Shown here piece by piece: positions 4,700-34,690 of a DNA stretch of 64,000 nucleotides. The notes under the pieces are model-generated. The model was not told the origin of the DNA, did no database searches, and worked only from the letters and a program-made list of their open reading frames with translations. A program made the position numbers and the translations under genes. The DNA comes from a virus. The stretch spans positions 1 to 64,000 of IMG/VR virus record IMGVR_UViG_3300027861_000016; one strand, given 5' to 3'. Position 1 is the first letter of the stretch, and each line of letters starts with the position of its first letter.

Positions 4700-7600
4700 C
4701 TATCGTGCGTTAGCTGCAAAATTATATTTATCTCTATAAGAATAGTCTACGAAGTTCTTATAGAAAGGATTCAATGTTTTGTTTAAATAAACCCATGATT
4801 TATATTCTCCTTTTCTTCTACCACTTCCAAATTGATGAAATTCAGCAGAAGTAGCATCATCTAACATACTATCAAGCATTAGTCCAGTAGTCTTCATTAT
4901 ATTCAAAGCTGCTGTAGGAGTCTCTAGAAATCTAACTGCTTCTCCGGATAAGACTGAAACAGGTGTAAAGAAGAACAATTCATTCCACATCCTTCTACTT
5001 AAATAAGCAGCAAAATATAAAGCTTCATTATCATCATCTTCATCTGCTAAGTCTGCTAATAGTTTAGCTGCAAATAAAGCTCCAAACATTATGCCTATTT
5101 CCATTATAGCTTTTCTAATATTTCCTCTCTCCGAGGTAGTTAAATTATTCCAATCCTTAGTCAATAATTCTGCGCCTAAATGTTCTTTATGTTTATATAG
5201 TTCAGACATAAATCTACCAAGAGTTACATATGTACCTTCTTTAAATGTTTTACTTGCTTCTGAATACCCTAATAGATGTGGATCAATTTCACTTTTATTT
5301 GTCCTCACTGTCTCAAACCCCTTCCATCTACTTTGAATACCTCTTTGAATAAATTTTCTAAGGAAGATACCTAATTTACCCCACCAATATCTTTGAATCA
5401 TTGATTTATTCTCTTGGGAGTAGTTACCTTGTAAATCAGCTACTTTATCTTGAATAATTCTAGAAACATTTGATATTAGGTTTTCAATATTATCTGTATT
5501 ACCTACATTATCAAAATAGAAACCTTTTTTATTTTCAAAGTTTCCTTTACTGTCTACAGTAAACACTTGATCTAATGTAGCTGCATCTTTTTCATCTTTG
5601 ACTATATTTCCTTCTATATCTATATAGTCTCCATCCGGACCCGGTTTGTTTTTAGCTTTATAGGAATCCATAATAGCATACATTAAAGTACCTTGGATGT
5701 AATGCTCGGCCATACCATTAACCATGTGTAGATTCTTAACTTGCCCTAATCTCTTAATCTGTGAATCTTGAGTAAAGTCATTTATAAATCCATCAAATCC
5801 AACTGAGTCTCCTATGAATAATTCCATAAGAATATTAGTTTTACTAGTTGGAGCTAGTTTACCTATGTCTTGCATATTAGCTAACATCTCTGTTGGACTA
5901 GTATATTTAACTTCCCCTTTATGTAGATTTTTTAGATCATACACATCTCCTTGAACTGATCCTAAGAAGTTCATAGTCTTACCTTGTAGTATATTGGCTG
6001 CTCCAGATCCCCAGTTTAAAATCAACATCTGATTAGCTGCAAATTCCATTGTCTTATTAGCAATCTTATCTACAGATAGTCCAAACATTTCACCTCCAGG
6101 AATAGAAGATAGTCCATATAATCTATCCTCAATAACAGAAGTTAGTAATTTATAAGAATTGGATTGTTTACCTCCTTCTTTTATTTGTTGTAATATTTCA
6201 GTCTCTTCTTCATCAGATATATTGAATGTTTTCTTCATTACCTGTTTCATCTTCTTATATGTTCCAGGAGAAGTAACATCGAACTTTCTAGATCCTACTA
6301 GTTCTTTAGTAAGTTCTAATGTATCTTTCAATTCATGTTTATGTTTAAAGTTTAATGATACATACCTATTAGTCACAGCCATTCCTGACAAATCAAATGA
6401 TTGATCTTCTATAGGAACATCAGCTCTAAAGGGAACACTTACACTTTTGAATTGTTGTCCAGATTGAGTACCTATTACTTTTACAATACCATCTTCCGTT
6501 ATAGTATCTAAATTTCCATAAGCATAATCATCTGCTTCTCTTTTAAGGCTATCTGTTTTACGTTTATAATATGATTTACCTGCTTCTTTTAAACTATCAG
6601 CTCTATTTATTAGTTCATTAGTTTTAGTCTTCATACCAGGAAGTTTCATTCCTAATTGTTTCCCACTCCCTTTAACCATCTTATCAGATGATTTATTGAA
6701 GTCTACTAATTTATTATAATAGTCGAATCTAGTAGTATCTTTTTCTAAATCTTTATATTGGCCACTTTCAGCATCTTTTCTAATATATCTATTAGGTCTT
6801 TCTTCTTTCTTAACCTTATCATAGTACATTTCATAAGTACTTTCCCATTCAGCTATATCTGTAGGATCTGTAGGTTTTGTGGTCTTAAATTTACTAAACC
6901 ATTTATTCTCTACTTCAGTTCTCTTAGCAAATAGTTCATTACCTTGTTTAGTTAATTCATCCAGTCTTTCTTTATTCTTTTCAGGATCTTGTTTTAGTTC
7001 TCTAATTTCAGCTACTATAATGTCAGTCTGATAATCTATTTCAGCTAATGCTGCTTTCATTTCAGATAATTCATTATAGTATTCAAACTTTAGTTTTCTA
7101 GTATAGAACCCTGTGTATTTACCTTCAGCATTCTTTTCTAGCATGTTCTTATAAAGCTCACGTTGATCTGTAATCTTTACTCCTTCAGTTCCTACTTTCT
7201 TACTAAATTCTTCAAAAGCATTAGATAATACAGCTCTATCTTTAATAAAATCTGTCCTAATCTTAGATGAAGCTCTGTCTAATAAACCTACTGCTGTTTG
7301 TATGATACTATCTTGCGTTACATTTCTAGGATCAACAATCCATGCAGAAATAGCAGATATATCTCCAGGAGATTCAGATAGTAAATTATAGATATAATCT
7401 CTTTCTTTAACTACTAATTGAGGTCTTTCAGCTATAAGTTGCTTCTCTACAGACGCATTCATTAATTTATCATAAGCTTTCCACTTTAAAGTAGATTTCT
7501 TTTTGTCATTGTCAGCTTTATATATTAGTTCTAAAGCTCTTCTTCTCATTCCAGTTTGTATTGTAGACTCTTGACCTAATACATCTGCTAGTTGACTTTT

Positions 7601-8251
7601 AGCTGCTGACTTATATGTGGAATTTAAACCATTAGATCTACTTTGAAGACTAGCTATTTGTCTAGAAACACTATTAGCTAGTTTCTTAGGTATATCATCT
7701 GTAGTATCTACATATTCTTTAATGGAATCTAATATATCAAAACCTTCTAATATTTCTAAACCTTGATTCAATTGAGTTAATGTAAATCCAGGAATATCTG
7801 TACCTAATTGCTTCTTAGATTCTTCTCTTTCTTTATTGATAGAATCTCTTTTCCTTTCTAAAGAAGATAGAATACCATTAGTATTATTTAAGAATATAGC
7901 TAAAGACTCAGATACATCAGCATTCTCAAAGTTCCTAATAGTAGTTTTTAAATCTGTAAGAATCTTCTTTAGTTCAGTAGTCTGTTTACCGGCTTTCTTC
8001 TTATTGTATATATTTAAAGTAGTATTCAAAGATAATTGGACTGACTTTCTCAAGTCAACCAATCTCTTAACACTTTGAGTAACTTCAGCAGTAATTGGGC
8101 TTTCAACCAATTCCATTCTTAAAGTTTCTATTTGATCCAAGGAAGGAATCTCCTCTTTATTTAATATAAAGAGTTTGATTGCTTCTGGTTCTCCTACTTC
8201 TTTCTCTAATTCTTTCCACTCTTTCGAGTTAGTATTTGGACATGAAATCAT
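4700..8251 (-). CDS. Large ejected virion cargo protein (downstream of vRNAP)
   Basis: 1183 aa helical protein; N-terminal 'SCPNTNSKEWKEL'; C-terminal hydrophobic helices; crAss-like synteny. Confidence 0.7.
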   Translation of the reverse strand: MISCPNTNSKEWKELEKEVGEPEAIKLFILNKEEIPSLDQIETLRMELVESPITAEVTQSVKRLVDLRKSVQLSLNTTLNIYNKKKAGKQTTELKKILTDLKTTIRNFENADVSESLAIFLNNTNGILSSLERKRDSINKEREESKKQLGTDIPGFTLTQLNQGLEILEGFDILDSIKEYVDTTDDIPKKLANSVSRQIASLQSRSNGLNSTYKSAAKSQLADVLGQESTIQTGMRRRALELIYKADNDKKKSTLKWKAYDKLMNASVEKQLIAERPQLVVKERDYIYNLLSESPGDISAISAWIVDPRNVTQDSIIQTAVGLLDRASSKIRTDFIKDRAVLSNAFEEFSKKVGTEGVKITDQRELYKNMLEKNAEGKYTGFYTRKLKFEYYNELSEMKAALAEIDYQTDIIVAEIRELKQDPEKNKERLDELTKQGNELFAKRTEVENKWFSKFKTTKPTDPTDIAEWESTYEMYYDKVKKEERPNRYIRKDAESGQYKDLEKDTTRFDYYNKLVDFNKSSDKMVKGSGKQLGMKLPGMKTKTNELINRADSLKEAGKSYYKRKTDSLKREADDYAYGNLDTITEDGIVKVIGTQSGQQFKSVSVPFRADVPIEDQSFDLSGMAVTNRYVSLNFKHKHELKDTLELTKELVGSRKFDVTSPGTYKKMKQVMKKTFNISDEEETEILQQIKEGGKQSNSYKLLTSVIEDRLYGLSSIPGGEMFGLSVDKIANKTMEFAANQMLILNWGSGAANILQGKTMNFLGSVQGDVYDLKNLHKGEVKYTSPTEMLANMQDIGKLAPTSKTNILMELFIGDSVGFDGFINDFTQDSQIKRLGQVKNLHMVNGMAEHYIQGTLMYAIMDSYKAKNKPGPDGDYIDIEGNIVKDEKDAATLDQVFTVDSKGNFENKKGFYFDNVGNTDNIENLISNVSRIIQDKVADLQGNYSQENKSMIQRYWWGKLGIFLRKFIQRGIQSRWKGFETVRTNKSEIDPHLLGYSEASKTFKEGTYVTLGRFMSELYKHKEHLGAELLTKDWNNLTTSERGNIRKAIMEIGIMFGALFAAKLLADLADEDDDNEALYFAAYLSRRMWNELFFFTPVSVLSGEAVRFLETPTAALNIMKTTGLMLDSMLDDATSAEFHQFGSGRRKGEYKSWVYLNKTLNPFYKNFVDYSYRDKYNFAANAR

Positions 8252-11200
8252 TAACAGTGTGTATTAAGTATATGTTCTAACCAAGTCTTTCCAACTTGTT
8301 CATTTAAGTAAGTGGTTACATCTTCTAAAAGAATTTCTTTAGTATCAAAAGAACCAACTACCTCAGCAGGTAAGCCTATCTCTATTTCCTTACCGTTTAC
8401 TTTCTTAACATACGCTTTCAAACCTCCATTTGTTGTCTTACTGAAACCAAATTCTGCATCTATACCTTCATAAGAGAATGTATTACCTCCATCATAGATA
8501 GATTTAAAAGAATCATTAGGTGTAAATTTAACTCCTTGGGTTGGAATAGTCTCTACTATGTCTAAAGATGTAGGCGGTACATAAGCATCAGCTTCTTGTA
8601 CTTTATCATTTACTACCTTACCTCCTTTATTTACAATAGAGTTAGGAGAATATCTATAGTTATATTCTACCATATTATTTCCTTTTTCACTATAACCTAA
8701 TATTGGAATACGTTCATAAATAATACCAAATCCTTTACCATGCTTTTCAGAAGTATCTACTCCTTTAAATTGATATAAATAAGGAGTAACAACAGTACTA
8801 TTTTCATTTTCTCTAACTTTAGCTGAGATGAATTGTACATATTGAGCATCCTTTCCTTCTACAGAGTTAGCTTTATAATTAGTAGGAATATCCTTTTCCA
8901 TAATTATTCTTTCTAGATTCTGTCCAGGCTTACTTATTAATTTGTTCTTAACCTTACTAGATAAACTCTTAACTATCTTTCTCTCTAAAGGATTATGTTG
9001 AGCTAACTGCTTCATGAACTTATTATCTGGGCCAACTGATTCTTTCAATGATCCTATAGTTTCATTATAAGTATTTGTGAAATCAGTCTGTTCATTCTTA
9101 TCAAACCAAGACATAGGAATCAATTCAAAGAATGATGTTCTACTCTTCTTAAATCCTGAACTAAAGAATGAATAAGTAACTAAGTCAGTAGCTAATTCTT
9201 TTAAATCCGAATCATCTGCTTCTAATGCATGTAACCAAGCTCTAGTTAATAAATCATTAGCATCTACATCTGCTATTTTAGATGCATCAATCTTAATGAA
9301 GTTCATACCTTTACTCCTATCGAATGTGGTATATAAATCTTGTATGAATACATTATCTGTATATTTCTTCTTAGCCTCTTTCAATCTAGTAGGTAACTTC
9401 TCAAATAGATCCTTTCTCTTTGTATCAGAGATTTGAAATAAAGGAGTAGCTGAAGATATGTATCTATAATAGTCATTAGCTACTTTCTGATTAATATCAT
9501 CATTTACAAGATAATTAGGATCTTCACCAACTGATTGATAAACTCCTCTAAGAACTTCTCTGAAACCTTCAGTTTTATAAAGCATTTTATCTCCATAAAT
9601 GGCATTAGATAAATGTAATGTATTCTTTGTATAGGCTCCTGAACTAGTATTAGCAAATAATTTATCTAAGTTTTCAACATTACCTTCATCTACTAATTTT
9701 CTATGTAATTCTTCAACACCTAATTGTTCTATAAATGAACCATAAGCACCGTTAGTATCAGCTTTAGTTACCTTCATTGTATTAGATAATACTTTAGCTC
9801 CTTCCCTAGCACGTAGAAAGAAATTCAATATAGATAATTGTTCTGTATAGAAGTCATAGTCTCTAGGTCTAGTTAAAGCATTATCTAATTTAACCATAGA
9901 TAACTCATTAATTCCTACAGTATTATTAGCTGTTAAAGACATTGTATTCTTTAACTCACCTTCACTTGGATTAGGATCATTTAACATTTGTTGAGTCATA
10001 AACTCAATAGTATCAGTAATAGCTGTATTAGTAGTATTCTTCTCTTTAACATCTACAGTCTCTAATCCTATACTTAATACTGACCTCTTCTTAAACTCTG
10101 ATTTAGTTAATTTACTTTGACTCAAGTTATGATTTTGCACTAACCTTTTTATAATAGGTTGGGACATTATACTATTAACTTGCTTATATGATACTCCAGC
10201 TCTTAATAAATAAGCTACTGTATTAGCAGTATAAGCATTATTATTAATCATAGCAATGTAAGGATCTTTAGCATTATCCACATAAGCATTTAGATATGCT
10301 GATAGAACTTGATTAATCTTCTGTGTTCCATCTAAAGTATAGATTTGAGATAGATCTGTAACTGCTCCTAATCCTAAATCCTGTCTTACACCTAATTTAG
10401 ATTGTTGACCATATACATGATGTACTAAGTGATTAGACATTTGACCTGTACCAGTTTTACCTGCTGCATTCTGTCTTTTAACTTTAAACTGATGCATTGG
10501 ATCATAGAACTCAGCATCAGAAGTCTTTCTTAATTCAGAAGTAGCCTTCTTAACTTGTTCTTCATAAGGTAAATTCAAGAACTCTTTATGTTGTTCAGGT
10601 TTACCTTTCATAGTTGCTATATAAGAAGTAACATAAGCATCTTCTTTTAAATAGTCAGCATCTAAAGATGATACAGCTTCACTATGAGTAGCATCTGAAG
10701 TCATGATAGAATTATATAATTCTAGTAGTCTATTTTGAACTGCTTCTTTACTATTTTGTTCATAGATTGTTTGTTTAGAATAAGTGTCAAGACTATCAAC
10801 TTCGCCTGAGGCAATTACTTCTTTCTTCTTCTCTTCGAATATTGTAGACCATTTAAGTTTTGAAGTTCTAATCTCAATTATATCATTTAGTACTCTTTGG
10901 TATCTCTCATCCTCCGTAACATCCTTATTCATCTCAGTAAGATCGTTCAAGATTTTTATATTCTCTTGTACTATCTTCCAATCTTCTACATGATCCTCTT
11001 TAAGCATAGCATCTAATTCTTTACCATATTTTTTAGATGTATATTTATTAACATATTTATTATATCTTTTTTGTGTGCCTTTTTCAGAAGTATCATTATC
11101 AAATTGAGTCATCTCAACCTTACCTGTTTTCTTATTATATTTAAGATTAGGCATCATCACAAACATCTTATCAACATCAAAATCGGAACCAGTCTTAGCT

Positions 11201-15164: not shown

Positions 15165-18100
15165 TTATTCTCCACACTTATTATTATCTTCATCTAACAT
15201 TTGTATAAGTCCTGATGATAATGCTTTTGAAATATCTATATCTTCTTTAGACAATTGTTTCAGAGATTTCATACCAGCATTAGACATTTGAATGAATGCT
15301 CCGCCAGGCATCTTAAACTTAACAGTTGATTTAGTAATAGCTGCTAATAGTTTAGATTCTATTTTATCTCTAATTTGGAATATAGCATCTAATGGAATAT
15401 TATTCTCTAGAGCATAAATAGTATTTATAGATTCACTATCAGCAATTGCTTCTTCTAATAAACTATCATAGATTGGTTGAAGACTCTCTGGTACATTTAA
15501 TCTTCCATCTACATCTTGAGTTATTCCATATTGTTTAAGTAGTTTATTTCTTCCTATATCTGATAAAGCAGATTCAGTTTCTAATACTTGTCTTTGTATT
15601 TCTCTACCATCAACCATCTTACCATCTAAAGAATAAACATCTTCATCTAAAGCAATGTTAGCTAATATATTCTTCTTAACCTGTGAACCTGCTAATGATT
15701 CTCCTTTCTTATCATATTTAGATGGATTATCTACTTGTAGTTTCCAATTGAAGTTACTAAGAGTAATTGGTTTAAGATGTCCTTTAACAGTTTCTCCACT
15801 TGCTATAGATTCAAAAGAGGACTTCTCAGTAGCTCCTAACTTCATTGCAGATTCAAATAGTAATTCATCTACATTATCTACTTCCATTTGTTTAAGAACA
15901 TTCTCTAATTGAGTATCCTTAACTAATCTAGGATGTAATACTGCTTGAGAATACTTTAGGAATGATGGAATACCTCTACCATTCTCATCCTGTCTTACTT
16001 CAAAATGTGTTCCTTTCAATGCTTGAAGTTTAAGTATATTACTATAATCAACTTCTACATTAGGATCTAACATCTTTTGATAAGTAGCTTCATGTTCTGG
16101 AGTCCAGTTTCCTAATCCATTTTGTATCTCTCTAAATCTAGCTAAAGTAATATAACATTGAGCATCTCCTTGATTGATTTCTTCATAAGGTTTCAATTGT
16201 TCTTTAGCTTCTTTCTTAGCTTGTTTATCACTTAATTTAGGATTAGCTGCTTTCTTATCTTTAATAAGTTTAGCTAAGTTTCTATCATAGAACTCTTTAG
16301 CTGCTCCTGTCTTCAAATCATTTAGAACTGCAACATTATATGTACGTTTTACTCTCTCGCCATCAACTCTTAATTGTTGACCATCTGAACCTAAAGCTTG
16401 AATACGTTTAGAAACATCTGAATAGAATGCTGGATCACCTCCAAAGATAAACATAGTTTCTACATTAGCAGTCCAACCCATGAACCAATAGTCAGCTAAT
16501 AATTCATTCATGTTATTATGAATAGCAGCTTGAGATGTAAAGTTAGTCAATTCTTTATCTAATCCTTGTATTTTTCTACCTCTATCTATAAGAATACCTT
16601 CACCAGCTAAGAATGTTTTCTGTTCTTTTAATCTCTTTTCAACTAGTTCTTTCATGTAATTAACTAGTACTTCATTCTCTTGTAAGTCTTTAAGGTCAAG
16701 TAAATGAACCTTACCTTTCCCCATGTCACCATACAAGTCTAATTCATTAGCTAAATCAGTTCCATAAGATAAAGAACCAAAGAATGCTGATTTTAAATCA
16801 CCTCCATTTATCTCATCTTTAAATTTAGTAACATCTTTGCCATCCCTGTCTTTAACAACTTTAGTTCCAGAAGAAGCTACTGATACAATCCTTTCATATT
16901 CTCCATAGAAGTATTGAATCATCTGATCTGTTACAGTCTTTGTTATTTGATAACCTGTACCATCAAACTTAATACCTGATCTAAACTTAGCTGCTGGATC
17001 TTTTGATTGATCATTATATGTCAAATATCTAACTGTAGGTTTATCACCAAATGTTAGTATAGGAAAGTTAGCTGATAATGTAGCACCTATTCTTTCAACA
17101 ACATCATCTTGTGATACTAAGTTAGCAGATTTAGATCCACTGTCAGGTAGATTACCTCCTTCAACTTTATTTGTACTATGTGTAGTAATACTATAGTTCT
17201 CAATACCACGTCCTTTATTCTTACCCATGTCTTGTAACATGAAAGAATGTCTATGGAACATTTGGTTAACATGTTTTGTAAAAGCAGAATCACTTCTTTT
17301 CCACAATGCAAGTGTTTTATCCATTTGTGTATATTGACCTAAAGTAGAATACTTATTACCTTCTGGTCCTAATATCATACTATCACCTTGTACGTTAGAA
17401 CTATAACTAGCTATTCTAGATAAGGCTTGTATTAAATAACTTCCACCATTAACATCTCCTAAAGGATTCTTTCCATTATAATTCCAAGTAAATCCCTCTT
17501 CTAACATAGAAGATATAGAAATAGGTGTGTTCTTATTACCTAAGAATAGCTTACTCATTTCATACATTCCAGTTTTAATAGTTTTCTTCTTAGCTGTAAG
17601 CTCTAAGAAGTAATTCTCTATTTGTGGAATAGTTAAAGGAATACCTAAATCAGTAAATGCTTTAGATAGTACTTCAGAATCTTCTCTTCTAACTCTCTTT
17701 TCTTCACGCTTTACTGCTGCTTGTAATATAGGAGTTACTTCTTCTATAACTCTAGAGATTGTATTTAGTTTACTTGGTTTTGTATAAGCATCTTCTTCAG
17801 TTAGGAAACTCTCAGTAAAGTTAGTTGTCCATTCCTTTTCTATTATCTTTTCGGAACCTTGAGAAGAAGCATTTACAACCTTCAAATCTACATCACCATT
17901 CTCACTCATATAGCTAATGAAAGCACGATAGTCTACATTAGTTACACTAAAAGCATTTACAAACTGAGTTCTTTGGAATTCTTCAGCTCCTTTTAATCTT
18001 TTAAGTACTTCTGTTAAATAACTGTATTCGTCTATAGTAGCTTTTTCTTCTATAGCTTTATACATCTCAAGATATACATCTCCTTCGCTTACAATTCCTG

Positions 18101-21100: not shown

Positions 21101-24100
21101 TAATAGCTTTATCATATGCAAACTGTACTCTAGTATCCCAGAACTTATCTGATTTATCTATTTCAAATTTAAAGATTGTTCCAGATTTAATCTGAGTAGG
21201 ATCTTCCATCCAATTTGTAAAGTGGATATTCTCATTATTCATATCCTCTTCAGCTATGAATCTTTTGTCTCCTTCTTTAACTCTACCAGCTTTAGTTAAT
21301 GTATATGACTTATAAGCAGGAGTATTCAACATTGAACTATACTTATCTTCTGCAATATCTATAGCTTCTTCATTGACCCCTGTTCCTTCATTAACTTTCC
21401 CAGACATTGGAACACTGTTAGGATCTTCTATAGTAGCTTTAGGACTTGTTGATAATTGTTTATCGTAATAAGCATTAACATTATCTATTAACTCTTGTTC
21501 TGTAGCAGTATCTTTAAACATTTCTCCACTAAGAGATCCGGCTAGTTGCCAAGTATTTTTAGGTTCTCTGCCTCTACGTGCTATAGTCAACCCTTTTATT
21601 TTTTTCAAATCCGCAACTCTATTTTCTTCCAAAACCGAATCAGGGGTCTTTACACTATCCTTAGATGTTTCACTTTCACCTTCTACTTTATCTTTTTTAG
21701 TAGCTTGAGCTTCTTCTTTCTTTATAGCTTCTAATTTCTCTGTATACTTATCCTGTATTCTTTGTACAGCTATATCATTTTGTTTTTTAACTTCCTGTCT
21801 CTCTGCTTCTACTTTTTTAGTAGCTTTGTCAGTATTAACCGCCTCTCCTTTTATATTAAATGTATTTGTATTACTTACATTGTCAGATGTATATTCTATT
21901 AAAGGTTGCTTAGTTACTACATATATATCATCTCTAAGTTCTACAATACCAGGTTCTAATGTTCTTATACTTATATGCTCGGGCAATTTAGCATTGGTTG
22001 CTACAGCAGCCTGGTTTACATATATATCAGGAGAATTTAAAGCTAATTCTGTCATTTCAGCATTCTCACTATTATATGTTAAATATAATGTACCATCTGA
22101 GGATTCTATAACTCTATATGTACTGTACTCACCACTAGTGTTTGATTGCTCTTCAGCATTAAATTTATTATCTAAATAAGGAGCAGATAAAAAAGATTCT
22201 TTCCCAGAAATAGTAATCTGTTTAGAACCATCCTTCTGTTTTGCATTTTTAATAGCAGTTTCTGTTGCTTTATCAAGTGCAGCTAACTCGGCTTTTTTAC
22301 TTTGCTCAAGTTTTTTAATCTTCTCCTTCTTCTCCTTCTCTATAATAGCTTTCTTATCTTTAACACTCTCAGGTTTAACTTCCTCTTCTATATCTTCTTT
22401 CGTAGCTGTTACAGCTACTCTACCACCAAAAGGATCTGCTACTGGTTCAGGTGTAGTCTCAGGTTGTGAATCTTTTCTTTCTTTATTTTCATAAGCTTGT
22501 TTTGTAGACTCTGTTGTATTAGTAGGAGTAGCATGTTCTGTAGTTGTACTCTTTGCTGTAGATTTCTCTGGTCTAGTGTTAACAAAAGATTCTATTTCTA
22601 ATTCAGCCATAAGATCCTCAAATTCAGCTAAAGGATTATAGTTAAAATCTTCTCCATAGTTTCTTTCAACAGTAGCAAAAGTTTTAGTTAAATCTATTAA
22701 CCTTTCAATTTGCTCTTCTATAGCTGTATTATCTGTTTCATATTTCTCAGCTAATTTCTCTGCTTGATCCAAAACTTCTTTAGATAGGTTTGGATTTTCT
22801 AATTGTTCTCTTAGTTTATTACGTCTACCTTCTAAATATCTAATTTCATTTGTGTATTCTTGTATTTTATCTCTATTAACTGTAGAACGTTTTTCTTTTA
22901 TCTCTTCTTCTTTTACTTTAAACTCTTTGTCTCTAACAGTAGTAACAGCTAATTCTTCTAAAGCTTTAAACTGTTTATCATTAACTTTAGATTTAGCTTT
23001 GTCTAAAAGTAAAGCCATAGAATCAGCATTAGTTGATTCACTAATTCTTTGTTTAAAATCTTCAGTAAGAGCTTTTTGTCTCTTCTCTGTAAATTTAGGA
23101 TCAGTTAAAATATTATAATGTTCAGTATAAACTTGTGAAGCTACTAAAGCATCTGCTTTACTTTTATATAAATTATTTAATTCCTCATACTCATCAAAAG
23201 CTTTAACTTCTTTAGGTAATCCTTTAGTTTGTTCTAAGTCATTAAGTTGTTCTTGTACTTCATTTAATTTAACTTCTAACTTCTCTCTAGAATCCCTTAG
23301 TAATTCTGAGGGTTTACCTGTCTCCTCTTCAAACTTAACAGAGTGTTTCTCAATAGCATTAAGTTGCTTTTTTAAAGCTTCATATTGAAACTGTACTGGA
23401 TTTATATCTTCATCTGATACACTTTTAAAGTTAGCAACTAACTTCCCAGTTAAAGAAGCTATATCATTATTCTTTTGAGCTACTACTTCTTGAGTAGAAT
23501 TCTTTCTAGAATTTGCTTTATAAATAGCATTTACTACACCTAATCCTTCATTACCATATTTATGTCGTATTTTATTATAAGACTCATCTAAAGCAGGAAG
23601 TTTGGTCATATACTCAGAAGCAATCTTTCTATCTTCTTCTGGTAAGTTTTCATCATCTATTATTTGTTGAATAGATTCTCTCAACCCATCTACTTTATCA
23701 GCATTAAAATGATCTAAAGCTAATTCTTCAAATTGTTTACTTGTAATATCTTCAAATGTATTACTATCCCCTTGCTCAATAGCTTGGGCTTTTTTAACAA
23801 GATCTTCAGTACTACTTTTAATAGTTTTTCTTAGTTTCTCACTAACCTTATTTACATCACTAAGTTCTTCAAAATCATCTATAGCTCTCCCTGTTACTTT
23901 CTCTTGTAATTTAGCAGCACCTTTCATCATACCACTTTGAACTGGGCCTCCGACAACTCCCATTATACCGGTATAAAGTCCATCGGGAGAAGTAATATAG
24001 TCAAAAGCTCTTCCTACATATGTAGAATTGTTTTCAGCTTTAATATCTAAATCTATTAAAGCATTTCTTTCAACTTCTTTTTGAATAAGTCCAGTAGATA

Positions 24101-25010
24101 CTTCTTCTAAGTACTCTGTACTTGAACTCATTAGTCCATCTTTTAGAAGGTTTTTCTTAGCTTTATCTTTTAATCCTTGAGTGAAGTAATTTGATTTGAA
24201 TATAGATCCAACTTGTGCTGCGTCTGTAAGTATTAAAGCTTTACTTTGCCAAATTACATTATGCATTGCTTCATTACCTTTAGCTTCTGCTGTCTTATAG
24301 TCTATACCTGACATTAATGCTTTGTCCATTACAGATTTTCTAGTCTCAGCAGCATTAATTCTAGCTTCTGCATAGTTTAAAGCAGTAGCAGTACCAAGTT
24401 GTGTAATTAAAGCTGCACCTTTAGCTGTACCTTTCATTACTTTTAATAAAGCAGCCGCACCAGCTCCAATAGCAGAACCTGTTAAGGCTCCTGTAATACC
24501 AAAACCAACAGCAGATTCTAGTGTTGATGATAATGCTTCAGCATAAGAAGCAGGATCACTAAAATCAAATGTAGCACTTGGATCTTCTTTATAAATAGCA
24601 AATTCGTCTCTAAGACTTTCTTTAGCTTCTCTAGCTGATTCAGATAACCAGTTATCCATATTATCAGAAGTCTCAGCCCAATCAGCTATATCTAATAAAT
24701 AACCGGCATTCTCTCCAACAGACAATAGTCCACCAACTAATCCTGTACCAATAGCCCGTCTAAACTGTTCCCCTGCTGTTTGCCTTTCTGCCCTAGAAGC
24801 ATCTAATCCTGCTTGTGAAGTTATGCCTTCTGGGAAATAGTCTTCATACTCACTAATATCAAAATTAGTAAGCTCTCCCTCTAAGAGGGATTTTCTTACA
24901 GAAGGCTCTTCTATATAATCAGATTCTCCTAAAATAGATGTATCTTCCTCTGGTCTATATGCAGCCTCTTGTTCTTCACTATATTCCGGTGTTCCTAGTA
25001 TATCACTCAT
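15165..25010 (-). CDS. Giant virion polyprotein: N-terminal membrane-type helices, coiled coils, zincin peptidase, N-terminal (beta-like) half of virion RNA polymerase
   Basis: 3281 aa; Gly-rich hydrophobic helices near the N-terminus; HEAWH zincin motif at 18921-18935; RNAP-type motifs 'NQGDAQCYIT', 'LKYSQAVLHP', 'FESAMKLG', 'GSQVKK', 'KFKMPGGAFIQMS' near the C-terminus. Confidence 0.82.
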   Translation of the reverse strand: MSDILGTPEYSEEQEAAYRPEEDTSILGESDYIEEPSVRKSLLEGELTNFDISEYEDYFPEGITSQAGLDASRAERQTAGEQFRRAIGTGLVGGLLSVGENAGYLLDIADWAETSDNMDNWLSESAREAKESLRDEFAIYKEDPSATFDFSDPASYAEALSSTLESAVGFGITGALTGSAIGAGAAALLKVMKGTAKGAALITQLGTATALNYAEARINAAETRKSVMDKALMSGIDYKTAEAKGNEAMHNVIWQSKALILTDAAQVGSIFKSNYFTQGLKDKAKKNLLKDGLMSSSTEYLEEVSTGLIQKEVERNALIDLDIKAENNSTYVGRAFDYITSPDGLYTGIMGVVGGPVQSGMMKGAAKLQEKVTGRAIDDFEELSDVNKVSEKLRKTIKSSTEDLVKKAQAIEQGDSNTFEDITSKQFEELALDHFNADKVDGLRESIQQIIDDENLPEEDRKIASEYMTKLPALDESYNKIRHKYGNEGLGVVNAIYKANSRKNSTQEVVAQKNNDIASLTGKLVANFKSVSDEDINPVQFQYEALKKQLNAIEKHSVKFEEETGKPSELLRDSREKLEVKLNEVQEQLNDLEQTKGLPKEVKAFDEYEELNNLYKSKADALVASQVYTEHYNILTDPKFTEKRQKALTEDFKQRISESTNADSMALLLDKAKSKVNDKQFKALEELAVTTVRDKEFKVKEEEIKEKRSTVNRDKIQEYTNEIRYLEGRRNKLREQLENPNLSKEVLDQAEKLAEKYETDNTAIEEQIERLIDLTKTFATVERNYGEDFNYNPLAEFEDLMAELEIESFVNTRPEKSTAKSTTTEHATPTNTTESTKQAYENKERKDSQPETTPEPVADPFGGRVAVTATKEDIEEEVKPESVKDKKAIIEKEKKEKIKKLEQSKKAELAALDKATETAIKNAKQKDGSKQITISGKESFLSAPYLDNKFNAEEQSNTSGEYSTYRVIESSDGTLYLTYNSENAEMTELALNSPDIYVNQAAVATNAKLPEHISIRTLEPGIVELRDDIYVVTKQPLIEYTSDNVSNTNTFNIKGEAVNTDKATKKVEAERQEVKKQNDIAVQRIQDKYTEKLEAIKKEEAQATKKDKVEGESETSKDSVKTPDSVLEENRVADLKKIKGLTIARRGREPKNTWQLAGSLSGEMFKDTATEQELIDNVNAYYDKQLSTSPKATIEDPNSVPMSGKVNEGTGVNEEAIDIAEDKYSSMLNTPAYKSYTLTKAGRVKEGDKRFIAEEDMNNENIHFTNWMEDPTQIKSGTIFKFEIDKSDKFWDTRVQFAYDKAIREGDVALTSLKIEDFSSIPIKMVAYKKDGTKELYNGKSLESYHKTSKKGTAKQYVTERINMIRTLAQGGTAETTIDGVVNGKLSTISVEENLKRIKKGTNVNLYEAFKDTENGLTVLIADLQHNLNLAPGVTDPDHEGQGVNTPGFAYASLDSAEEQDGKKKKGLIRLNPNKVSKEIANEVYEAARAIMSNDKNEKPNTAFKSPSGQVEGLTNLQLINLVAFEGSSSTYKSKTPFWVNTVDKTIDGVDLPKGVYFEGSTTPTFEGDISKNKAEIIELLQNLPTTAQLYSINQNFRDKNIKDTFSFFGTDYSPNDEYNKFIFDQNFVYTNAEVYRGNVLYVNPLATYSEIRMEDATPVVDNNTEASEELKKPEEEKVAKKVVDETGAFDPAAMFSAMSQVNTSELNQVITEKEKEFVKEVVETKEEEVYDIPDNTSIIKGEDGTYDIRHQDEGVIGEYRTLKEAIEIANKYGEKKKVTKEEVKLREEWKEELAEYQIGKQESGDSEADMADLDFAQDRMMPDPDFFDDGDEYDAAVEQVLASKEYNDLSVDKGIAKINAKYEAKLLELKTPKPIVKEKAIDRKQELKSKISSLNSFLETTESTSARTQGIKDLTKAEKELATLEPPVKEVPELDENEFDDLLKELEDEVGDDEDVSFSTVNGQTDLDSINIPAAESWLKKSLPYTNLTVVNGLLNVPGGGFAEGSFRNGLITLSSNASKGTQYHEAWHAVSQMYLTEAQRIKIYDRWRKDNNSTLDNKKVEEKIAEELRQYMFSNREVKVTGWMKWLYDAIMDFIDLFRNSKHQTFSRLRRGQFDYKPTNMSDVELFSETTLSTMNVRDAVNTITYHAANKMGAVDFDRGRLKNSSFNIGLKYAKLQIVKQYKEQVNKNKDLATIYYQLIKDFDTYAAMAKNNLISLDIVESKKKDYTEEDARRRNYEDYDVTGEQIYSKSSLEYAAKDNATGNVKLMLGFIPDKNAENNSIGGRSFYPAGKTWIDVARATAGIVSEGDVYLEMYKAIEEKATIDEYSYLTEVLKRLKGAEEFQRTQFVNAFSVTNVDYRAFISYMSENGDVDLKVVNASSQGSEKIIEKEWTTNFTESFLTEEDAYTKPSKLNTISRVIEEVTPILQAAVKREEKRVRREDSEVLSKAFTDLGIPLTIPQIENYFLELTAKKKTIKTGMYEMSKLFLGNKNTPISISSMLEEGFTWNYNGKNPLGDVNGGSYLIQALSRIASYSSNVQGDSMILGPEGNKYSTLGQYTQMDKTLALWKRSDSAFTKHVNQMFHRHSFMLQDMGKNKGRGIENYSITTHSTNKVEGGNLPDSGSKSANLVSQDDVVERIGATLSANFPILTFGDKPTVRYLTYNDQSKDPAAKFRSGIKFDGTGYQITKTVTDQMIQYFYGEYERIVSVASSGTKVVKDRDGKDVTKFKDEINGGDLKSAFFGSLSYGTDLANELDLYGDMGKGKVHLLDLKDLQENEVLVNYMKELVEKRLKEQKTFLAGEGILIDRGRKIQGLDKELTNFTSQAAIHNNMNELLADYWFMGWTANVETMFIFGGDPAFYSDVSKRIQALGSDGQQLRVDGERVKRTYNVAVLNDLKTGAAKEFYDRNLAKLIKDKKAANPKLSDKQAKKEAKEQLKPYEEINQGDAQCYITLARFREIQNGLGNWTPEHEATYQKMLDPNVEVDYSNILKLQALKGTHFEVRQDENGRGIPSFLKYSQAVLHPRLVKDTQLENVLKQMEVDNVDELLFESAMKLGATEKSSFESIASGETVKGHLKPITLSNFNWKLQVDNPSKYDKKGESLAGSQVKKNILANIALDEDVYSLDGKMVDGREIQRQVLETESALSDIGRNKLLKQYGITQDVDGRLNVPESLQPIYDSLLEEAIADSESINTIYALENNIPLDAIFQIRDKIESKLLAAITKSTVKFKMPGGAFIQMSNAGMKSLKQLSKEDIDISKALSSGLIQMLDEDNNKCGE

Positions 25011-25044: not shown

Positions 25045-27300
25045 TTACTCTCTTCCAATTAATCTACCATGCAACTTTACGAGAGCATCATCAATTGTGT
25101 CACCAGATGAGATAGATGATCCATCTTTTCTGAGTATTTCTACTCCCGTAGGCTTCCCACTTTTATTCTTAATCTTCTTAAATGTAAAATTATATGTTTC
25201 ATTTGTAGCAGGATCTGTATATCCCCAACCAGAAGTCTCTTCATTACCTCTTAAAATATTATTAATAGCTACTTTATCTATCTGCTTAAATCTATTACCT
25301 GCTTCTAGACCCATTATAAGCTTATCTATACCAGGTATAATCTTACCATCAGAATCATATCTTTGCTTTTCAAGATCTCCTTTGTATTTTCTATACATTG
25401 ATTGTCCCAATTCAGCATTATTTGCTTTCACATACTGCTCTCTTGTTTCAGTAGTATTTGAGTTTTTTACAATCATTTTATAAATATACTCTGATCCTGT
25501 TGCAGATGTAGGTAAAAATATAACTTCTGATTTACTATTCACTCCTCCTAATTTTTTTAATTCCGTTGAAGCTTTGTTTTGAAAGTCAACAGCTTGTTGA
25601 GTTATTCCCTTTTCATTTGTAAAAGTAAGAGCGTTTACATTATTTTTCATAAACTCACCATTGTAAAGAATTCCTTCATCAGCAGCACTTTGTAAATCTT
25701 TACGAGCAGTGGGGTTCCCCCATATACTTAACTGTCTTCCTGTAGTTCTAAGCTTCTTAGTTTTGGCGTAAGAATCTATAGCGTCTCTATGTTGTGTAAT
25801 ACGTTCCTGTATAAACTTATTATCTTCAGGTGATTTCCTAAGCATTGTTTCTATTTCTTGCTGTTCCTGAGGAGTCATGTTTTGCATATTTGTCTTTTTC
25901 CATGATTTAAAAACATCCTTTTCAAAATCAGTAGCTAACGCACTCTCCAACCAAGAAAGACTATTAGAATCATAAAGTAACTTATTAATTGTTTTATCAC
26001 TTAATCCTTCTTCAGATAAATAGTTTTTATGCTTTTCTAACTCACCTTGTTGAGTAGGATCATTATAAAAAGTATCAATTTCATATTTCTGTTGTGATCT
26101 AGACTGTTCTAGTGTCCTAAGTGTATTCATATGCTGATCTCTTTCTTCAGCGGTAAATTCTCCTTTTTTATACTTCTCCATAATCTTTGTACTGACATGA
26201 TCACTGTCTACAGATCCATCGTCGTTGAATATAAGATTTGGATTATTAGTTATTTCTTTAACATCTAAAGCTCTAACAATATCTTTCTTACTTTGATTTA
26301 TAATCTCTACCTGATCCTGTTGATTAATCTTATCTGTATTTTGATTAGCTATAGTAATTGAAGCTGTACTTAAAGCATCATTATATATTTTAGCTTTTGT
26401 TCTAGCATTTTTTTCTGCTTGAGTAGGCTTACGTAAATCTTTCAAATCCTTATCTGTTTGATCTACTTCAAATTGCATACCTGTAGCTGTAATTAGATTT
26501 TGTATCATCTCATCAGAATCATAACTAGCATCATTCATTATATCTTTAAAGTTCCTAACATCTTTATCAGATAACGCCATTTGATCTAAAGCTTTTGTTA
26601 TTACTTCTTTAGCAAGTTCTTTCTTCTTTGTAGTACTTCTGGTATCATAACCATCAATAGCTAATTGACTTTCTTCTTTTAATAACCCTAAATATGTATT
26701 GATTTGAGGTTTCATTTGTCCAGCAAACTTAGCCATCTTAGCTTGTACATCAGGTGTTGGGGCTAAGTTGTATAAATTATATTCTGCGTCTCCCAACTTC
26801 CCTCCTGCTTCATTATACTTTCTAAGATAATTTGCTTTTATATCTCTAGCCGTCTCAGCACCTCTACCTCCTTTAGCTATTATCTTATCTTGTAGTTCCA
26901 TGTCTCTTTTAAACTGTTCACCACGTTTATGCATTTCACCCAAAGGTCCAGTACTTAATTCCTTTTTTAACTTATTAGCCAAGCCTCTAATTTCATTCTG
27001 AGCTTTTCCATAATCGCCTCCTACAGATTCCGATATTTCTGAAATTCTATTATTATAGTCAGCCAATCGCTCATTCTTATAGGCTTCGTCTGCTCCTATT
27101 TGACCTTCAGCTCCAGGAATAGTATCTATTTTAGCTATTGAGGCATTTATATCATCAATAGTTCCTGTTGTATCATCATATTGCTTTTGTTTCACATCTA
27201 CCGCCTTTTGCATTTGAGCAAAAGGAAGTGGTATATGTTGAGACACATAATCTTGTTGAAATGTGTCTCTAACTGGTTGCATATATTCATTAACTGCCAT
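25045..27300 (-). CDS. Virion cargo (ejection) protein
   Basis: 751 aa helical; N-terminus 'MAVNEY..P....YV..IPLPF' resembles crAss-like cargo proteins; lies upstream of the vRNAP. Confidence 0.6.
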   Translation of the reverse strand: MAVNEYMQPVRDTFQQDYVSQHIPLPFAQMQKAVDVKQKQYDDTTGTIDDINASIAKIDTIPGAEGQIGADEAYKNERLADYNNRISEISESVGGDYGKAQNEIRGLANKLKKELSTGPLGEMHKRGEQFKRDMELQDKIIAKGGRGAETARDIKANYLRKYNEAGGKLGDAEYNLYNLAPTPDVQAKMAKFAGQMKPQINTYLGLLKEESQLAIDGYDTRSTTKKKELAKEVITKALDQMALSDKDVRNFKDIMNDASYDSDEMIQNLITATGMQFEVDQTDKDLKDLRKPTQAEKNARTKAKIYNDALSTASITIANQNTDKINQQDQVEIINQSKKDIVRALDVKEITNNPNLIFNDDGSVDSDHVSTKIMEKYKKGEFTAEERDQHMNTLRTLEQSRSQQKYEIDTFYNDPTQQGELEKHKNYLSEEGLSDKTINKLLYDSNSLSWLESALATDFEKDVFKSWKKTNMQNMTPQEQQEIETMLRKSPEDNKFIQERITQHRDAIDSYAKTKKLRTTGRQLSIWGNPTARKDLQSAADEGILYNGEFMKNNVNALTFTNEKGITQQAVDFQNKASTELKKLGGVNSKSEVIFLPTSATGSEYIYKMIVKNSNTTETREQYVKANNAELGQSMYRKYKGDLEKQRYDSDGKIIPGIDKLIMGLEAGNRFKQIDKVAINNILRGNEETSGWGYTDPATNETYNFTFKKIKNKSGKPTGVEILRKDGSSISSGDTIDDALVKLHGRLIGRE

Positions 27301-29111
27301 TATTTTGTAGTCTTAGTATTAATAAACTCTAATTTTTGTGTGTCTGGATTTATTCTATAGTTGTTAGATAATAAATATTGTAATGTTTTCTGATCCATCT
27401 CATCAGCCTTTTTATCTTTGTTCTTCATATATAACTTCTGAGAGCCTACTTGAGCTAATTTCCCAACATCACTCATAGCTTCACCTAAGAATGCTTCTTT
27501 CTGTGCTTCTCCTCTTCTAGTAGCATCTTGAATATTCAGTTGTTGTTTCTGACTATTCTCTCTTTCCATATTACTCATTTGAGTATTTTGTTGAGCTATT
27601 TGCTGTTGTTTCAATTGCTCTCCTCTATTAATCTGTCCTCTTTGTTCAGCAGCTTTAGCAGAAGTCTGTGATAATCTACCTAAAGCTTGTCCTCTACTTA
27701 GTCCAGATTTATCTATTCCTCTTTGAACTGCTCTTTCAGATTTCAATACATTCTCTCTATCTACATCTGATGTATCTTCATATTTATATCTTTCTAATTC
27801 CAAAGGTACTTCTTTTGGAGCAGAAACTGCTTCTTGACTCTTTAAATATTTATGTAGAGGTGAAGCAAATTGTCCAGCAGTTAAAGCAGCTTGTCCTACT
27901 TTATTTAATCCTGAACCATCTCCTCTTTCTCTATTAGCTAATTTCTCTTTTAATGTAGGTTCTGTAGGATTTACTATTCCACTTTGATTCAAAGAAGAAT
28001 CTGAAATATCATTTACTCTTCCTAATGGTGAAGTCCCTTGTCCTACATTAGTTGCTTTGTTTATAGGATTAACTCTAGAAGTATTTTTATAACTAATACC
28101 ATCAACTCCTATTCCTTCTGTTCCTGTTCTAGTAGCTTTATTCATAGGTCTAGTAGTTTCCCCTTGGTTCATAAATCCAAAGGATGAAGCTAGTGGGTCA
28201 TAAGGCTCATTCTTAGCTACTCCAGGTAATGTATCAAATTGACTACTTAAATATCCTTTAGTTTTATCTTCACCATACTGTCCTGAATCTAATACAACTT
28301 CTCCTCCGTTTGCAAATTTATCAATAGATACTTCATCTGTACCTTGAATCTCACCTGTAATATCTTGTTCATTAGGAGAAAGATTGCCTGTATTAAAAGA
28401 TTGTGTAGAAAACTTATTGGTTCCAGGAACATTAGTAGGATCTCCATCATTACCTTGAGGGTTCTTTACATCAGCAGGCAAATTATCTCTTTCTTTCTCT
28501 AATCTTTTCTTAGCTCCTTTATCCCCATTAAGTTTTACTTTCCTAATATCATTTAGAATAGATTTAGCTTTATCTGGATTATTCTGTGTATCAAATACAA
28601 CATCACCATCTTCCGCCATTACTTTATTACCTCCTTCTGCATGAGATTTAGTTCCTAAGTTCTTTATATTAAACTTAGAATCAGTATGAATTTCAGGAGA
28701 TACTTTTCCTTCGATTTCAATAGCTTTAGTACCTTTTGCGAATTGGTCAATCCTTGTTGTTTGTTGATCAATTTGTGTGTCTCCAATACCTAAGTCTTTA
28801 TATGTTTCATTCTTTCTTAGAGCGTCAGCTCTAGCAGACTCTTCTCTAGCAACAGCTTTTTTACCTGAACCATATCCTTGAGCACCACCGGCAATTCCAC
28901 CGGCGGCTCCTCCAATTACTGTTCCCCAAGGACCAAAAGCACTTCCAATAGAAGCACCAGCAGATGCTCCAGCCATAGCTCCTTGTGCTGTAGTACTTCC
29001 TACATCTGTTGTAACTTCAGGAACTAATATCTGTTTAGCTCCTGCATTATAAGCCTTGACTTTCTTAATGCCTTTAGCTGCTTTCTTTAATTTCGATTTT
29101 CTACAAGCCAT
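27300..29111 (-). CDS. Cargo protein 1-like ejection protein with glycine-zipper membrane hairpin
   Basis: 603 aa; 'GAMAGASAGASIGSAFGPWGTVIGGAAGGIAGG' zipper; 'GTKSHAEGG' motif; Q-rich coiled coil; follows the muzzle gene. Confidence 0.65.
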   Translation of the reverse strand: MACRKSKLKKAAKGIKKVKAYNAGAKQILVPEVTTDVGSTTAQGAMAGASAGASIGSAFGPWGTVIGGAAGGIAGGAQGYGSGKKAVAREESARADALRKNETYKDLGIGDTQIDQQTTRIDQFAKGTKAIEIEGKVSPEIHTDSKFNIKNLGTKSHAEGGNKVMAEDGDVVFDTQNNPDKAKSILNDIRKVKLNGDKGAKKRLEKERDNLPADVKNPQGNDGDPTNVPGTNKFSTQSFNTGNLSPNEQDITGEIQGTDEVSIDKFANGGEVVLDSGQYGEDKTKGYLSSQFDTLPGVAKNEPYDPLASSFGFMNQGETTRPMNKATRTGTEGIGVDGISYKNTSRVNPINKATNVGQGTSPLGRVNDISDSSLNQSGIVNPTEPTLKEKLANRERGDGSGLNKVGQAALTAGQFASPLHKYLKSQEAVSAPKEVPLELERYKYEDTSDVDRENVLKSERAVQRGIDKSGLSRGQALGRLSQTSAKAAEQRGQINRGEQLKQQQIAQQNTQMSNMERENSQKQQLNIQDATRRGEAQKEAFLGEAMSDVGKLAQVGSQKLYMKNKDKKADEMDQKTLQYLLSNNYRINPDTQKLEFINTKTTK

Positions 29112-33832: not shown

Positions 33833-34690
33833 TTATCTTCTTCCGTCTAAATCTAAATTCTGTGCTAATCCTATATCTGTATAATCAGTAAGTGAAGCAG
33901 ATACATCTCTTACTTGTCTCCAAAGAATATTCTTTAAGTTCTCTATTTGATGTACATCAGGCATGTTAGCATAAGATCTTGCTTGTCCACAATACTTTTC
34001 CCACATCTGTCTACAGTATTCCATATCCCTCATTCTCTGGTTAGGAAGCATATCAGGATTTCTCATAGATATATGATAGGCTATATTCCAAAACATAGCT
34101 TCTCTAAATCCCACATCATCTGGAACTAATGGATAACCTTGTTCATCTGTAGGTATTCCTATATATTGTACAGTTATTTTACCTGTCTCGAAACCCATGT
34201 TAATTTTATTGGCTTGGATGTTATAGTCTAGATCAGTAATAGAATTACTCTTAACATCACCAAATAAATGTTTATTATATTTCAAAGACTGAGGTCTTTG
34301 TGAGCTAGCTCCAGCCATCATCCTAGGTTTAGCAGGATTTAGTATCAAGTTCTGATCATAAATGTTTAATGAACTAAAATCTCCTCCTGACTTCTCTACT
34401 ATCTCTTGATAGGTACAATCATAGAATGTTTTATCACAACAAGAATCATCTTGTTTACATCCTACTTGTAATCTAACTAGTTTATATAGATCACAAGGTA
34501 ATATTCCAGAATAGTCTGTAATATCTACAACAGCCTCCATTTCTTTAAATTGAGCATAAGCTCCAATTTGTAATAAAGCATCAGCTACCCATTCTACAAA
34601 ATCTTGGTAAGGAATATCTTGATTACCTAATCCAAGATCTCTTACGATCTTTGATATTACTACATTAATACTTTCTAATTTATATATCAT
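33833..34690 (-). CDS. Tail ring / tubular protein (P22 gp4-like)
   Basis: 285 aa; 'VISKIVRDLG..EWVADAL..IG', 'LPCDL', 'PTDEQGYPLVPD'. Confidence 0.7.
   Translation of the reverse strand: MIYKLESINVVISKIVRDLGLGNQDIPYQDFVEWVADALLQIGAYAQFKEMEAVVDITDYSGILPCDLYKLVRLQVGCKQDDSCCDKTFYDCTYQEIVEKSGGDFSSLNIYDQNLILNPAKPRMMAGASSQRPQSLKYNKHLFGDVKSNSITDLDYNIQANKINMGFETGKITVQYIGIPTDEQGYPLVPDDVGFREAMFWNIAYHISMRNPDMLPNQRMRDMEYCRQMWEKYCGQARSYANMPDVHQIENLKNILWRQVRDVSASLTDYTDIGLAQNLDLDGRR

Follow-up and report, generated by a model that had tools for sequence, protein, structure and literature searches.

Terminal cysteine pairs at gene junctions suggest an end-to-end linkage of putatively injected cargo proteins in a crAss-like phage

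Crassviruses pack around one megadalton of protein and eject it through a narrow tail by a mechanism that has yet to be explained. The stretch of DNA analysed here, hereafter called the window, comprises positions 1 to 64,000 of the IMG/VR virus record IMGVR_UViG_3300027861_000016 and, judged by its sequence, derives from a crAss-like phage; the genome was assembled as a single contig of 95,930 bp, and the G+C content over the window is 31.5%. The window encodes three giant proteins of 3281, 2282 and 1183 amino acids (aa), which, as homologues of virion proteins of the phages phi14:2 and crAss001, are most likely packed in the particle and injected into the host. A preliminary description of this locus had proposed that cysteines at the C-terminal end of one cargo protein and the N-terminal start of the next link the separately translated proteins, including the two parts of a split RNA polymerase, into one chain. 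Based on the sequence pattern described below and on the analogy to other phages, we consider it probable that head-to-tail disulfides join the cargo proteins into one thread.

The open reading frames (ORFs) of all three are located on the minus strand, and their start codons are the first ATG past an in-frame stop. The 3281-aa protein (15165-25010), which combines a cargo part termed A with the first, N-terminal half of the virion polymerase, has cysteines at positions 2952 and 3279 only; it ends with ...NKCGE and has no N-terminal cysteine. The 2282-aa protein (8251-15099), which contains a helicase payload and the C-terminal half of the RNA polymerase, starts with MAKC, ends with ...NTHC and possesses only Cys4 and Cys2282. 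The 1183-aa protein (4700-8251), a homologue of phi14:2 gp65 and crAss001 gp49, starts with MISC and contains only Cys4, and a C-terminal cysteine is absent. Thus, junction 1 is formed by the codons for Cys3279 (15174-15176) and for Cys4 of the 2282-aa protein (15088-15090), and junction 2 by the codons for Cys2282, the last residue of its protein (8254-8256), and for Cys4 of the 1183-aa protein (8240-8242), where the stop codon of the upstream gene and the start codon of the downstream gene share bases (TAATG). The closest homologue of the first protein, P0122, ends with ...GNKC. The sole internal cysteine, Cys2952 (16155-16157), lies in the polymerase motif DAQCYIT, and no cysteine is found at the point near residue 2100 of the 3281-aa protein at which A is fused to the polymerase.

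Taken together, the three giants contain five cysteines in 6746 residues, four of which are located at the two facing junctions. The probability that at least four of five cysteines fall within the 20 junction-facing terminal positions is 2.8e-10. Cysteine accounts for 1.30% of the residues encoded elsewhere in the genome, and its frequency in the cargo is orders of magnitude below this proteome level: six cysteines are present in 8100 cargo residues, and six or fewer would be expected at the general rate with P = 4e-37. The sixth is Cys3 of a 603-aa protein, which starts with MAC and has no other cysteine. Residue counts of the ORFs showed that what had been stated about terminal cysteines and the near absence of others in the 3281-, 2282-, 1183- and 603-aa proteins was exact in every case.

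The function of the first two proteins can be deduced from the RNA polymerase of phi14:2, gp66 (PDB 6VR4), whose two double-psi beta-barrels are joined by a Connector (residues 1095-1238). Residues 2103-3248 of the 3281-aa protein (15267-18704, minus strand) align with gp66 residues 92-1261 (expect value (E) 5.7e-52) and cover the first barrel and the Connector; in addition, matches to two proteins of crAss001 were found, to gp47 at residues 1978-2076 and to gp50 at residues 2819-3247. The match resumes in the 2282-aa protein, in which residues from around 1196 correspond to gp66 from around 1252 onward. This second segment (residues 1196-2051; 8947-11514, minus strand; E 6.2e-56) comprises the second barrel followed by a region that corresponds to the bridge helix and trigger loop of gp66, and its catalytic motif DFDVD at residues 1306-1310 is the counterpart of DFDID at position 1361 of gp66. 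According to these alignments, the polymerase of this phage is split just past the Connector, between the two barrels. The assertion that a cysteine pair sits exactly at the polymerase split is therefore right, since the halves of gp66 map to the 3281-aa and the 2282-aa protein and the break between them lies past the Connector. The 1183-aa protein matches phi14:2 gp65 (E 4e-68) and crAss001 gp49, and the flanking homologues, gp67/gp47 upstream and gp65/gp49 downstream, keep their order around the polymerase.

The cargo can thus be described by a scheme of three proteins, namely A (gp67/gp47), the polymerase B (gp66/gp50) and C (gp65/gp49). In phi14:2 and crAss001, the polymerase is one chain, whereas in the window A is fused to the first half of B, and an insert of 1,195 residues precedes the second half. 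Residues 115-625 of the 2282-aa protein (13225-14757, minus strand) form a Dda/RecD-like superfamily 1 helicase domain (PHROG 325, E 1.9e-76; Pfam AAA_30, AAA_19, PIF1 and UvrD_C_2). The position of this helicase module shifts within the polymerase protein of relatives (P0003-P0120): it is C-terminal in most of them, N-terminal here and in a few others, and located past the DFDxD segment in the fused protein P0218. The helicase is probably injected together with the polymerase because the module is always found inside the cysteine-bounded chain.

Is the arrangement of cysteines restricted to this phage? A polymerase alignment was used to retrieve 80 related loci from viral contigs, and 50 of these loci served as representatives, one each from 50 of the 51 clusters formed at 70% identity of the polymerase core. 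The giant ORFs of the 50 representative loci contain 191 cysteines in 268,189 residues. Of these, 94 are located at positions 2 to 7 (64 at position 3) and 90 lie no more than 31 residues from the C-terminal end, 77 of them within the last three residues; only seven cysteines are internal. Both facing ends carry a cysteine at all 90 true gene junctions that were scored. The outer ends behave differently: the C-terminal end of the last protein has a cysteine in none of 47 cases, and one of 46 complete N-terminal ends of the first protein was flagged, which proved to be no real case, as the first protein of this locus (L031) lies off the locus.

The same picture emerges from the protein families. 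A cysteine is present within the last eight residues of 119 of 120 homologues of the 2282-aa protein, although the identity over the helicase is often only around 30-45%. Fifty-one of the 120 are gene calls that start inside the catalytic DFDID motif (MFDIDKLY), and their first residue is therefore no true N-terminus. Among the other 69 homologues, 53 have a cysteine at positions 2 to 8, and 39 possess exactly these two cysteines; the homologues without an N-terminal cysteine are either incomplete gene calls or proteins in which A is fused. When the 1183-aa protein was used for an exhaustive search, 149 cluster representatives at 50% identity were obtained, 127 of which are 1000-2000 aa long. 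A cysteine was found in the first eight residues of 120 of these 127 members, and it is the sole cysteine of the protein in 105 of the 120. Within the last eight residues, a cysteine is found in none of the 149 representatives.

Fusions and additional splits of the cargo genes show how the cysteines change with the gene structure. Both junction cysteines are lost in loci in which A and B are fused (L004, L005, L012, L021 and L074) as well as in loci in which B and C are fused (L010, L017 and L079). The fully fused proteins P0123, P0193, P0210, P0218 and P0261 (4714-5860 aa), which are collinear with the three proteins of the window, contain no cysteine at all. Conversely, an extra split in L012 created new ends, which carry a cysteine pair. 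In a separate lineage (L087-L092), the polymerase is split just before the Connector, that is, on the other side of it as compared to the window, and the new ends again form a pair (...KNCD followed by MACQYF...).

Breaks that do not separate two proteins lack this signature. Several loci look as if they were split at the catalytic motif (...KTGSD / FDVDKMY...), and the seeming ends have no cysteine. The gap in L027 contains a LAGLIDADG endonuclease gene (E 6.7e-25), around which a permissive Rfam search detected the two halves of a group I intron (E 1.6e-6 and 5e-4); at the Rfam gathering threshold, no intron was found in four pseudo-split loci. Furthermore, an in-frame stop in L090 (6232-6240), which is followed by an ATG one codon on, divides a protein that is a single chain in close relatives, and the stop is not flanked by cysteines; it could reflect read-through, recoding or a sequencing error. 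The expectation that terminal cysteine pairs appear wherever a gene split occurs was thus borne out, because true junctions are paired, and fusions, introns and the L090 stop are not. As a separate observation, a group I intron with a LAGLIDADG homing endonuclease is inserted exactly at GSD|FDVD of the virion RNA polymerase gene (L027, 11655-12596; also in L029, L037, L049 and L076), and the 51 MFDIDKLY gene calls among the relatives of the 2282-aa protein begin at this spot.

The two cultured phages connect the pattern to proteins of the particle. In phi14:2, g067 (1797 aa) has a single cysteine, its last residue Cys1797, g066 (2180 aa) contains Cys3 and Cys2179, and g065 (1421 aa) only Cys3; the annotation of the three proteins is based on tandem mass spectrometry of virions. 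The corresponding proteins of crAss001 are gp47 with Cys2339 (of 2341 residues) only, gp50 with Cys5, Cys1334 and Cys2404 (of 2412 residues), and gp49 with Cys5 only. The proteins g067-g066-g065 and gp47-gp50-gp49 are not only homologous to those of the window and virion-borne by mass spectrometry, but also share the pattern of terminal cysteines. The gp47 gene lies on the strand opposite to those of gp50 and gp49, yet the pattern is kept; thus, the rule acts on the proteins rather than on gene adjacency or translational coupling. The structural atlas of the crAss001 virion lists gp45, gp46, gp47, gp49 and gp50 as cargo, argues for an N-to-C direction for gp45 and concludes that the packing and interaction of the cargo must determine the order in which it is ejected (Nature 2023, PMC10172136).

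The central claim of the preliminary description can now be judged in its parts. The linkage of separate cargo proteins, including the split polymerase, by a cysteine at a C-terminal end and another at an N-terminal start is strongly, though indirectly, supported by the comparative evidence, with pairs at true junctions and none in fusions. Linking in gene order, however, is not required, as the first protein of the crAss001 chain is encoded on the opposite strand and the pattern is retained. A place for the 603-aa protein in the chain is not supported: its neighbours have no C-terminal cysteine, and of four homologues just the nearest one retains Cys3.

The sequences around the junctions are partly conserved. 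In the 2282-aa protein, residues 2254-2280 (8260-8340, minus strand) are predicted to form a C-terminal helix just before His-Cys2282 (alignment A2; AlphaFold2 with a predicted local distance difference test score (pLDDT) of around 50), which carries the motif FDTKE...L..LNxxC common to L003, L004, L005, L018 and L078. The 1183-aa protein starts with the motif CPNxNxxEWKxLV...P36 (8144-8242, minus strand; alignments A3 and A4), of which C4 and P5 do not vary in either alignment, and W12, L15, A24, N31 and P36 are invariant in A3 and conserved in at least 90% of the sequences in A4. CPNxNxxEWKxLV is common to the downstream proteins of the same five loci and is also found in L052, so that in a subgroup including the window the C-terminal helix motif of the second protein co-occurs with the CPN...EWK motif of the third. 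The AlphaFold2 model of the 1183-aa protein is all-alpha (pLDDT 80.6); as residues 1-9 are modelled as coil, followed by well-ordered helices, Cys4 would sit on an exposed arm. At the other end of this last protein, relatives have a conserved motif near FLxN (...YNFAANAR in the window, 4700-4730, minus strand; alignment A4), which could mark the free end of the thread. The spacer of 65 nucleotides separating the 3281-aa and 2282-aa genes is occupied by a hairpin (15118-15144, minus strand) with a perfect stem of 12 bp (-17.7 kcal/mol, z = -3.7) and a U-rich stretch after it, which may be a terminator, processing or stability element within the cargo operon.

What could be the purpose of this arrangement? 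Like other ejected proteins, the cargo seems to have been purged of cysteine, save for one near each facing end. We propose two links, one between Cys3279 and Cys4 of the 2282-aa protein and the other between Cys2282 and Cys4 of the 1183-aa protein; they are most likely disulfides, which would be formed during or after particle assembly. A bond between unlike ends, C-terminal to N-terminal, is favoured because only the facing ends carry cysteines and the outer ends never do, and because both cysteines of a junction are gained and lost together. Three gene products would thereby become one unbranched thread of around 6,750 residues, which would run from N to C throughout and be covalently equivalent to the single-chain polyproteins without cysteine that are found in related phages. 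Since the bonds would lie at the extreme ends, the product would stay linear and unbranched and could pass a narrow channel; an internal disulfide would form a loop, in keeping with the loss of cysteine from all other positions. The first link would bridge the polymerase split and restore the continuity of the chain across the helicase payload. Packaging in a 1:1:1 ratio, continuous N-to-C threading through the tail and separation of the proteins by reduction in the host cytoplasm would be expected from such a thread.

The chemistry of the proposed bond is suggested by two systems. In the cyanophage A4 (Anabaena phage A-4L), cryo-electron microscopy revealed a disulfide between Cys1715 of gp27 and Cys5 of gp26, two adjacent giant ejection proteins of the pre-ejectosome; a C-terminal helix docks in a cleft, and the disulfide beside it 'further stabilises' the interaction (PNAS 2025, PMC12002296). 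The A-4L genome shows that Cys1715 (...NPCQF) is the only cysteine of gp27 (1717 aa) and Cys5 (MSKHC) the only one of gp26 (1114 aa). The A4 junction therefore resembles those of the window, with a C-terminal cysteine in the upstream protein, an N-terminal one in the downstream protein and (nearly) no others. However, A4 has one link and no RNA polymerase and belongs to the Saffermanviridae with a T7-like layout, whereas the window has a chain of two links, and the A4 paper neither generalises the cysteine rule nor ties it to gene splits. The second system is crAss001 itself, in whose virion disulfides were described in the gp57 dimer, between the tail hub and the ring proteins R1/R2 and in the tail and portal vertex (PMC10172136). 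Inter-subunit disulfides thus occur in crassvirus particles, but those of crAss001 clasp fixed parts of the capsid and tail, and the ejected cargo is not among them.

The depletion of cysteine from ejected phage proteins is already known from N4-like phages. In the Schitoviridae, cysteine is suppressed in the ejected proteins (N4 gp50/51/52 and DEV gp71-73), which was explained by their transit through the oxidising periplasm (Nat Commun 2024, PMC11445570). Indeed, N4 gp50, gp51 and gp52 (L085) as well as T7 gp15 and gp16 (L086) contain no cysteine. As in the crassvirus cargo, a giant virion RNA polymerase and its co-ejected proteins are nearly cysteine-free in the Schitoviridae; they lack terminal cysteine pairs, however, whereas it is precisely the junction pairs that remain in the crassvirus proteins. 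The only cysteine of T7 gp14 is located at position 2. The split in the window, which falls between the two double-psi beta-barrels and next to the gp66 Connector, resembles the division of cellular multisubunit RNA polymerases into beta and beta-prime subunits; the cellular subunits associate non-covalently, whereas the split in the window is marked by a terminal cysteine pair. Targeted full-text literature searches found no paper that describes the end-to-end pairing of terminal cysteines or its tie to gene fission and fusion for the Crassvirales, and the cargo cysteines are not mentioned in the crAss001 atlas paper (PMC10172136), the phi14:2 polymerase preprint, a 2021 genome survey or a 2023 review.

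Several points weigh against a disulfide-linked thread. A disulfide at the cargo junctions of crassviruses is deduced from the sequence pattern and by analogy, and the atlas paper saw no ordered density for the cargo proteins of crAss001 (PMC10172136). The precedent of A4 is an analogy and no family tie, since phmmer gave no match between A4 gp26/gp27 and the crassvirus proteins, profiles of the crassvirus terminal regions reached only E >= 0.19, and a Foldseek search of the PDB with the 1183-aa model returned nothing at E <= 0.001 and only weak alpha-solenoid look-alikes. Moreover, the cytoplasm in which the particles assemble is reducing, and the habitats of many hosts are anoxic. Neither a thiol oxidase nor a thioredoxin-like gene was seen among the CxxC ORFs of the genome in a genome-wide motif scan and in Pfam searches confined to three ORFs of the window; none of the CxxC ORFs has a thioredoxin or glutaredoxin motif. 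One of the three ORFs matched DUF6171, one gave a weak radical-SAM match below the cut-off and one had no match. A few relatives place the C-terminal cysteine 11-31 residues from the end. Cys3 of the 603-aa protein has no C-terminal cysteine partner in the neighbouring proteins, and neither this residue nor the internal Cys2952 fits a simple chain. Finally, two thiols could equally bridge a metal ion.

This last idea leaves the ends clasped and differs from a disulfide in the chemistry only: the facing cysteines would bind a metal ion such as Zn or Fe, perhaps with ligands of a second copy or of another protein. The co-variation with splits and fusions fits a metal bridge equally well, a thiolate-metal clasp needs no oxidising step, and the 2282-aa protein ends with His-Cys. 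However, each terminus offers one cysteine, the alignments and terminal contexts show no conserved second ligand (His, Cys or Asp) nearby, and the one solved case with the cysteine signature, phage A4, is a disulfide, which makes a metal bridge unlikely in our view. A similarly low probability is assigned to the idea that the termini dock non-covalently and that the cysteines have another role, for example, as a redox or contact sensor after ejection, without a covalent chain in the particle. The conserved terminal motifs do suggest a docking interface whatever the chemistry, and in A4 a helix inserts in a cleft with the disulfide as an additional stabilisation (PMC12002296). Outside the subgroup with these motifs, however, the cysteine is the sole residue common to the junctions and its context varies widely, and it is unlikely that a residue depleted roughly 400-fold elsewhere would be retained at precisely the two facing ends without bonding.

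The terminal cysteines might also bond elsewhere, either to the same terminus of a second copy, giving a homodimer, or to a portal, ring or capsid part that serves as a packaging anchor. The crAss001 virion is rich in structural disulfides and Cys3 of the 603-aa protein has no cargo partner, both of which would suit this explanation; it leaves unexplained, however, why the outer ends are free of cysteine and why the C-terminal and N-terminal cysteines appear and disappear jointly, and it is hence regarded as improbable. By far the least plausible explanation is chance or an artefact at the nucleotide level, such as TGT codons near stop and start codons that serve translational coupling, as might be suspected from the overlap of the 2282-aa stop and the 1183-aa start. 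The placement of the cysteines in the window alone is hardly compatible with chance, the rule holds for gaps from overlap to around 500 nucleotides and for crAss001 gp47 on the opposite strand, and pseudo-splits by introns break the gene without cysteines, so that an artefact is refuted as far as sequence data allow. Three further candidates were discarded: split inteins or native chemical ligation, as the cysteine is not residue 1 and intein blocks are absent; acylation as lipoproteins, as a signal peptide and lipobox are absent; and intramolecular N-to-C cyclisation, as the first and last proteins have one terminal cysteine each.

Each of the two cysteines that do not fit the disulfide-linked thread is retained by its closest relative alone. 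Cys3 of the 603-aa protein (27300-29111, minus strand; codon 29103-29105) is kept in P0138 (46% identity) and not in P0139-P0141, and in relatives, the equivalent cargo ORFs on the upstream side are mostly free of cysteine (58 of 65). Cys2952, which belongs to a conserved polymerase motif, is also present in P0122 (ADAQCYIT); at its position, no residue reaches a majority in the family consensus. The two residues, retained in P0138 and P0122, respectively, might form a lineage-specific extra link.

The cargo block is part of a late module on the minus strand, which runs from around 47.3 kb down to 4.7 kb. As in other Crassvirales, it sits downstream of the genes for terminase, portal, capsid, ring and muzzle proteins. 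PHROG matches identified the terminase large subunit (TerL, 938 aa; 44479-47295), the portal (42131-44479) and the major head protein (38837-40306), and a 285-aa ORF (33833-34690) is a homologue of the crAss001 ring protein gp43 by sequence match. A 1571-aa ORF encodes a virion structural protein in the muzzle position and is followed by five large ORFs of 603, 751, 3281, 2282 and 1183 aa, in that order. The 603-aa ORF comes directly after it; the 751-aa ORF (25045-27300) contains no cysteine, is cargo-like by its position, that is, by synteny only, and gave no match in family searches. No near relative emerged when the region was compared with phage records by megablast. TerL carries an N-terminal extension of around 330 residues with weak PHROG matches to a DnaC-like loader and a primase. 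In the early region, a 314-aa ORF with a CxxC motif (55846-56790, plus strand) accounts for the radical-SAM match, which scored 26.1 bits and thus remained under the Pfam cut-off of 29.5.

Extended to the Crassvirales as a whole, an order to which the most abundant phages of the human gut belong, the arrangement in the window would make the injected RNA polymerase machinery a redox-reversible 'polyprotein': a disulfide thread of 5,000-9,000 residues, packed 1:1:1, would be pulled through the tail without interruption and parted into working enzymes by the reducing conditions of the host cytoplasm. Gene fission would then be tolerated only when both new ends gain a cysteine, as here in the middle of the polymerase, and the device would have arisen independently in cyanophage A4. 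For this order-wide extension, the arguments in favour and against appear evenly balanced to us. In any case, the window provides a clean natural experiment, because its split falls between the polymerase barrels. The rule is also useful for the annotation of these difficult genomes, as it distinguishes true gene ends from breaks caused by introns, recoding or assembly and picks out the giant ORFs of the injected set. A simple sequence rule predicts which cargo ends touch each other, thereby making the question of crassvirus ejection testable, and it may explain how the giant genes could split and fuse freely in evolution with their function being kept.

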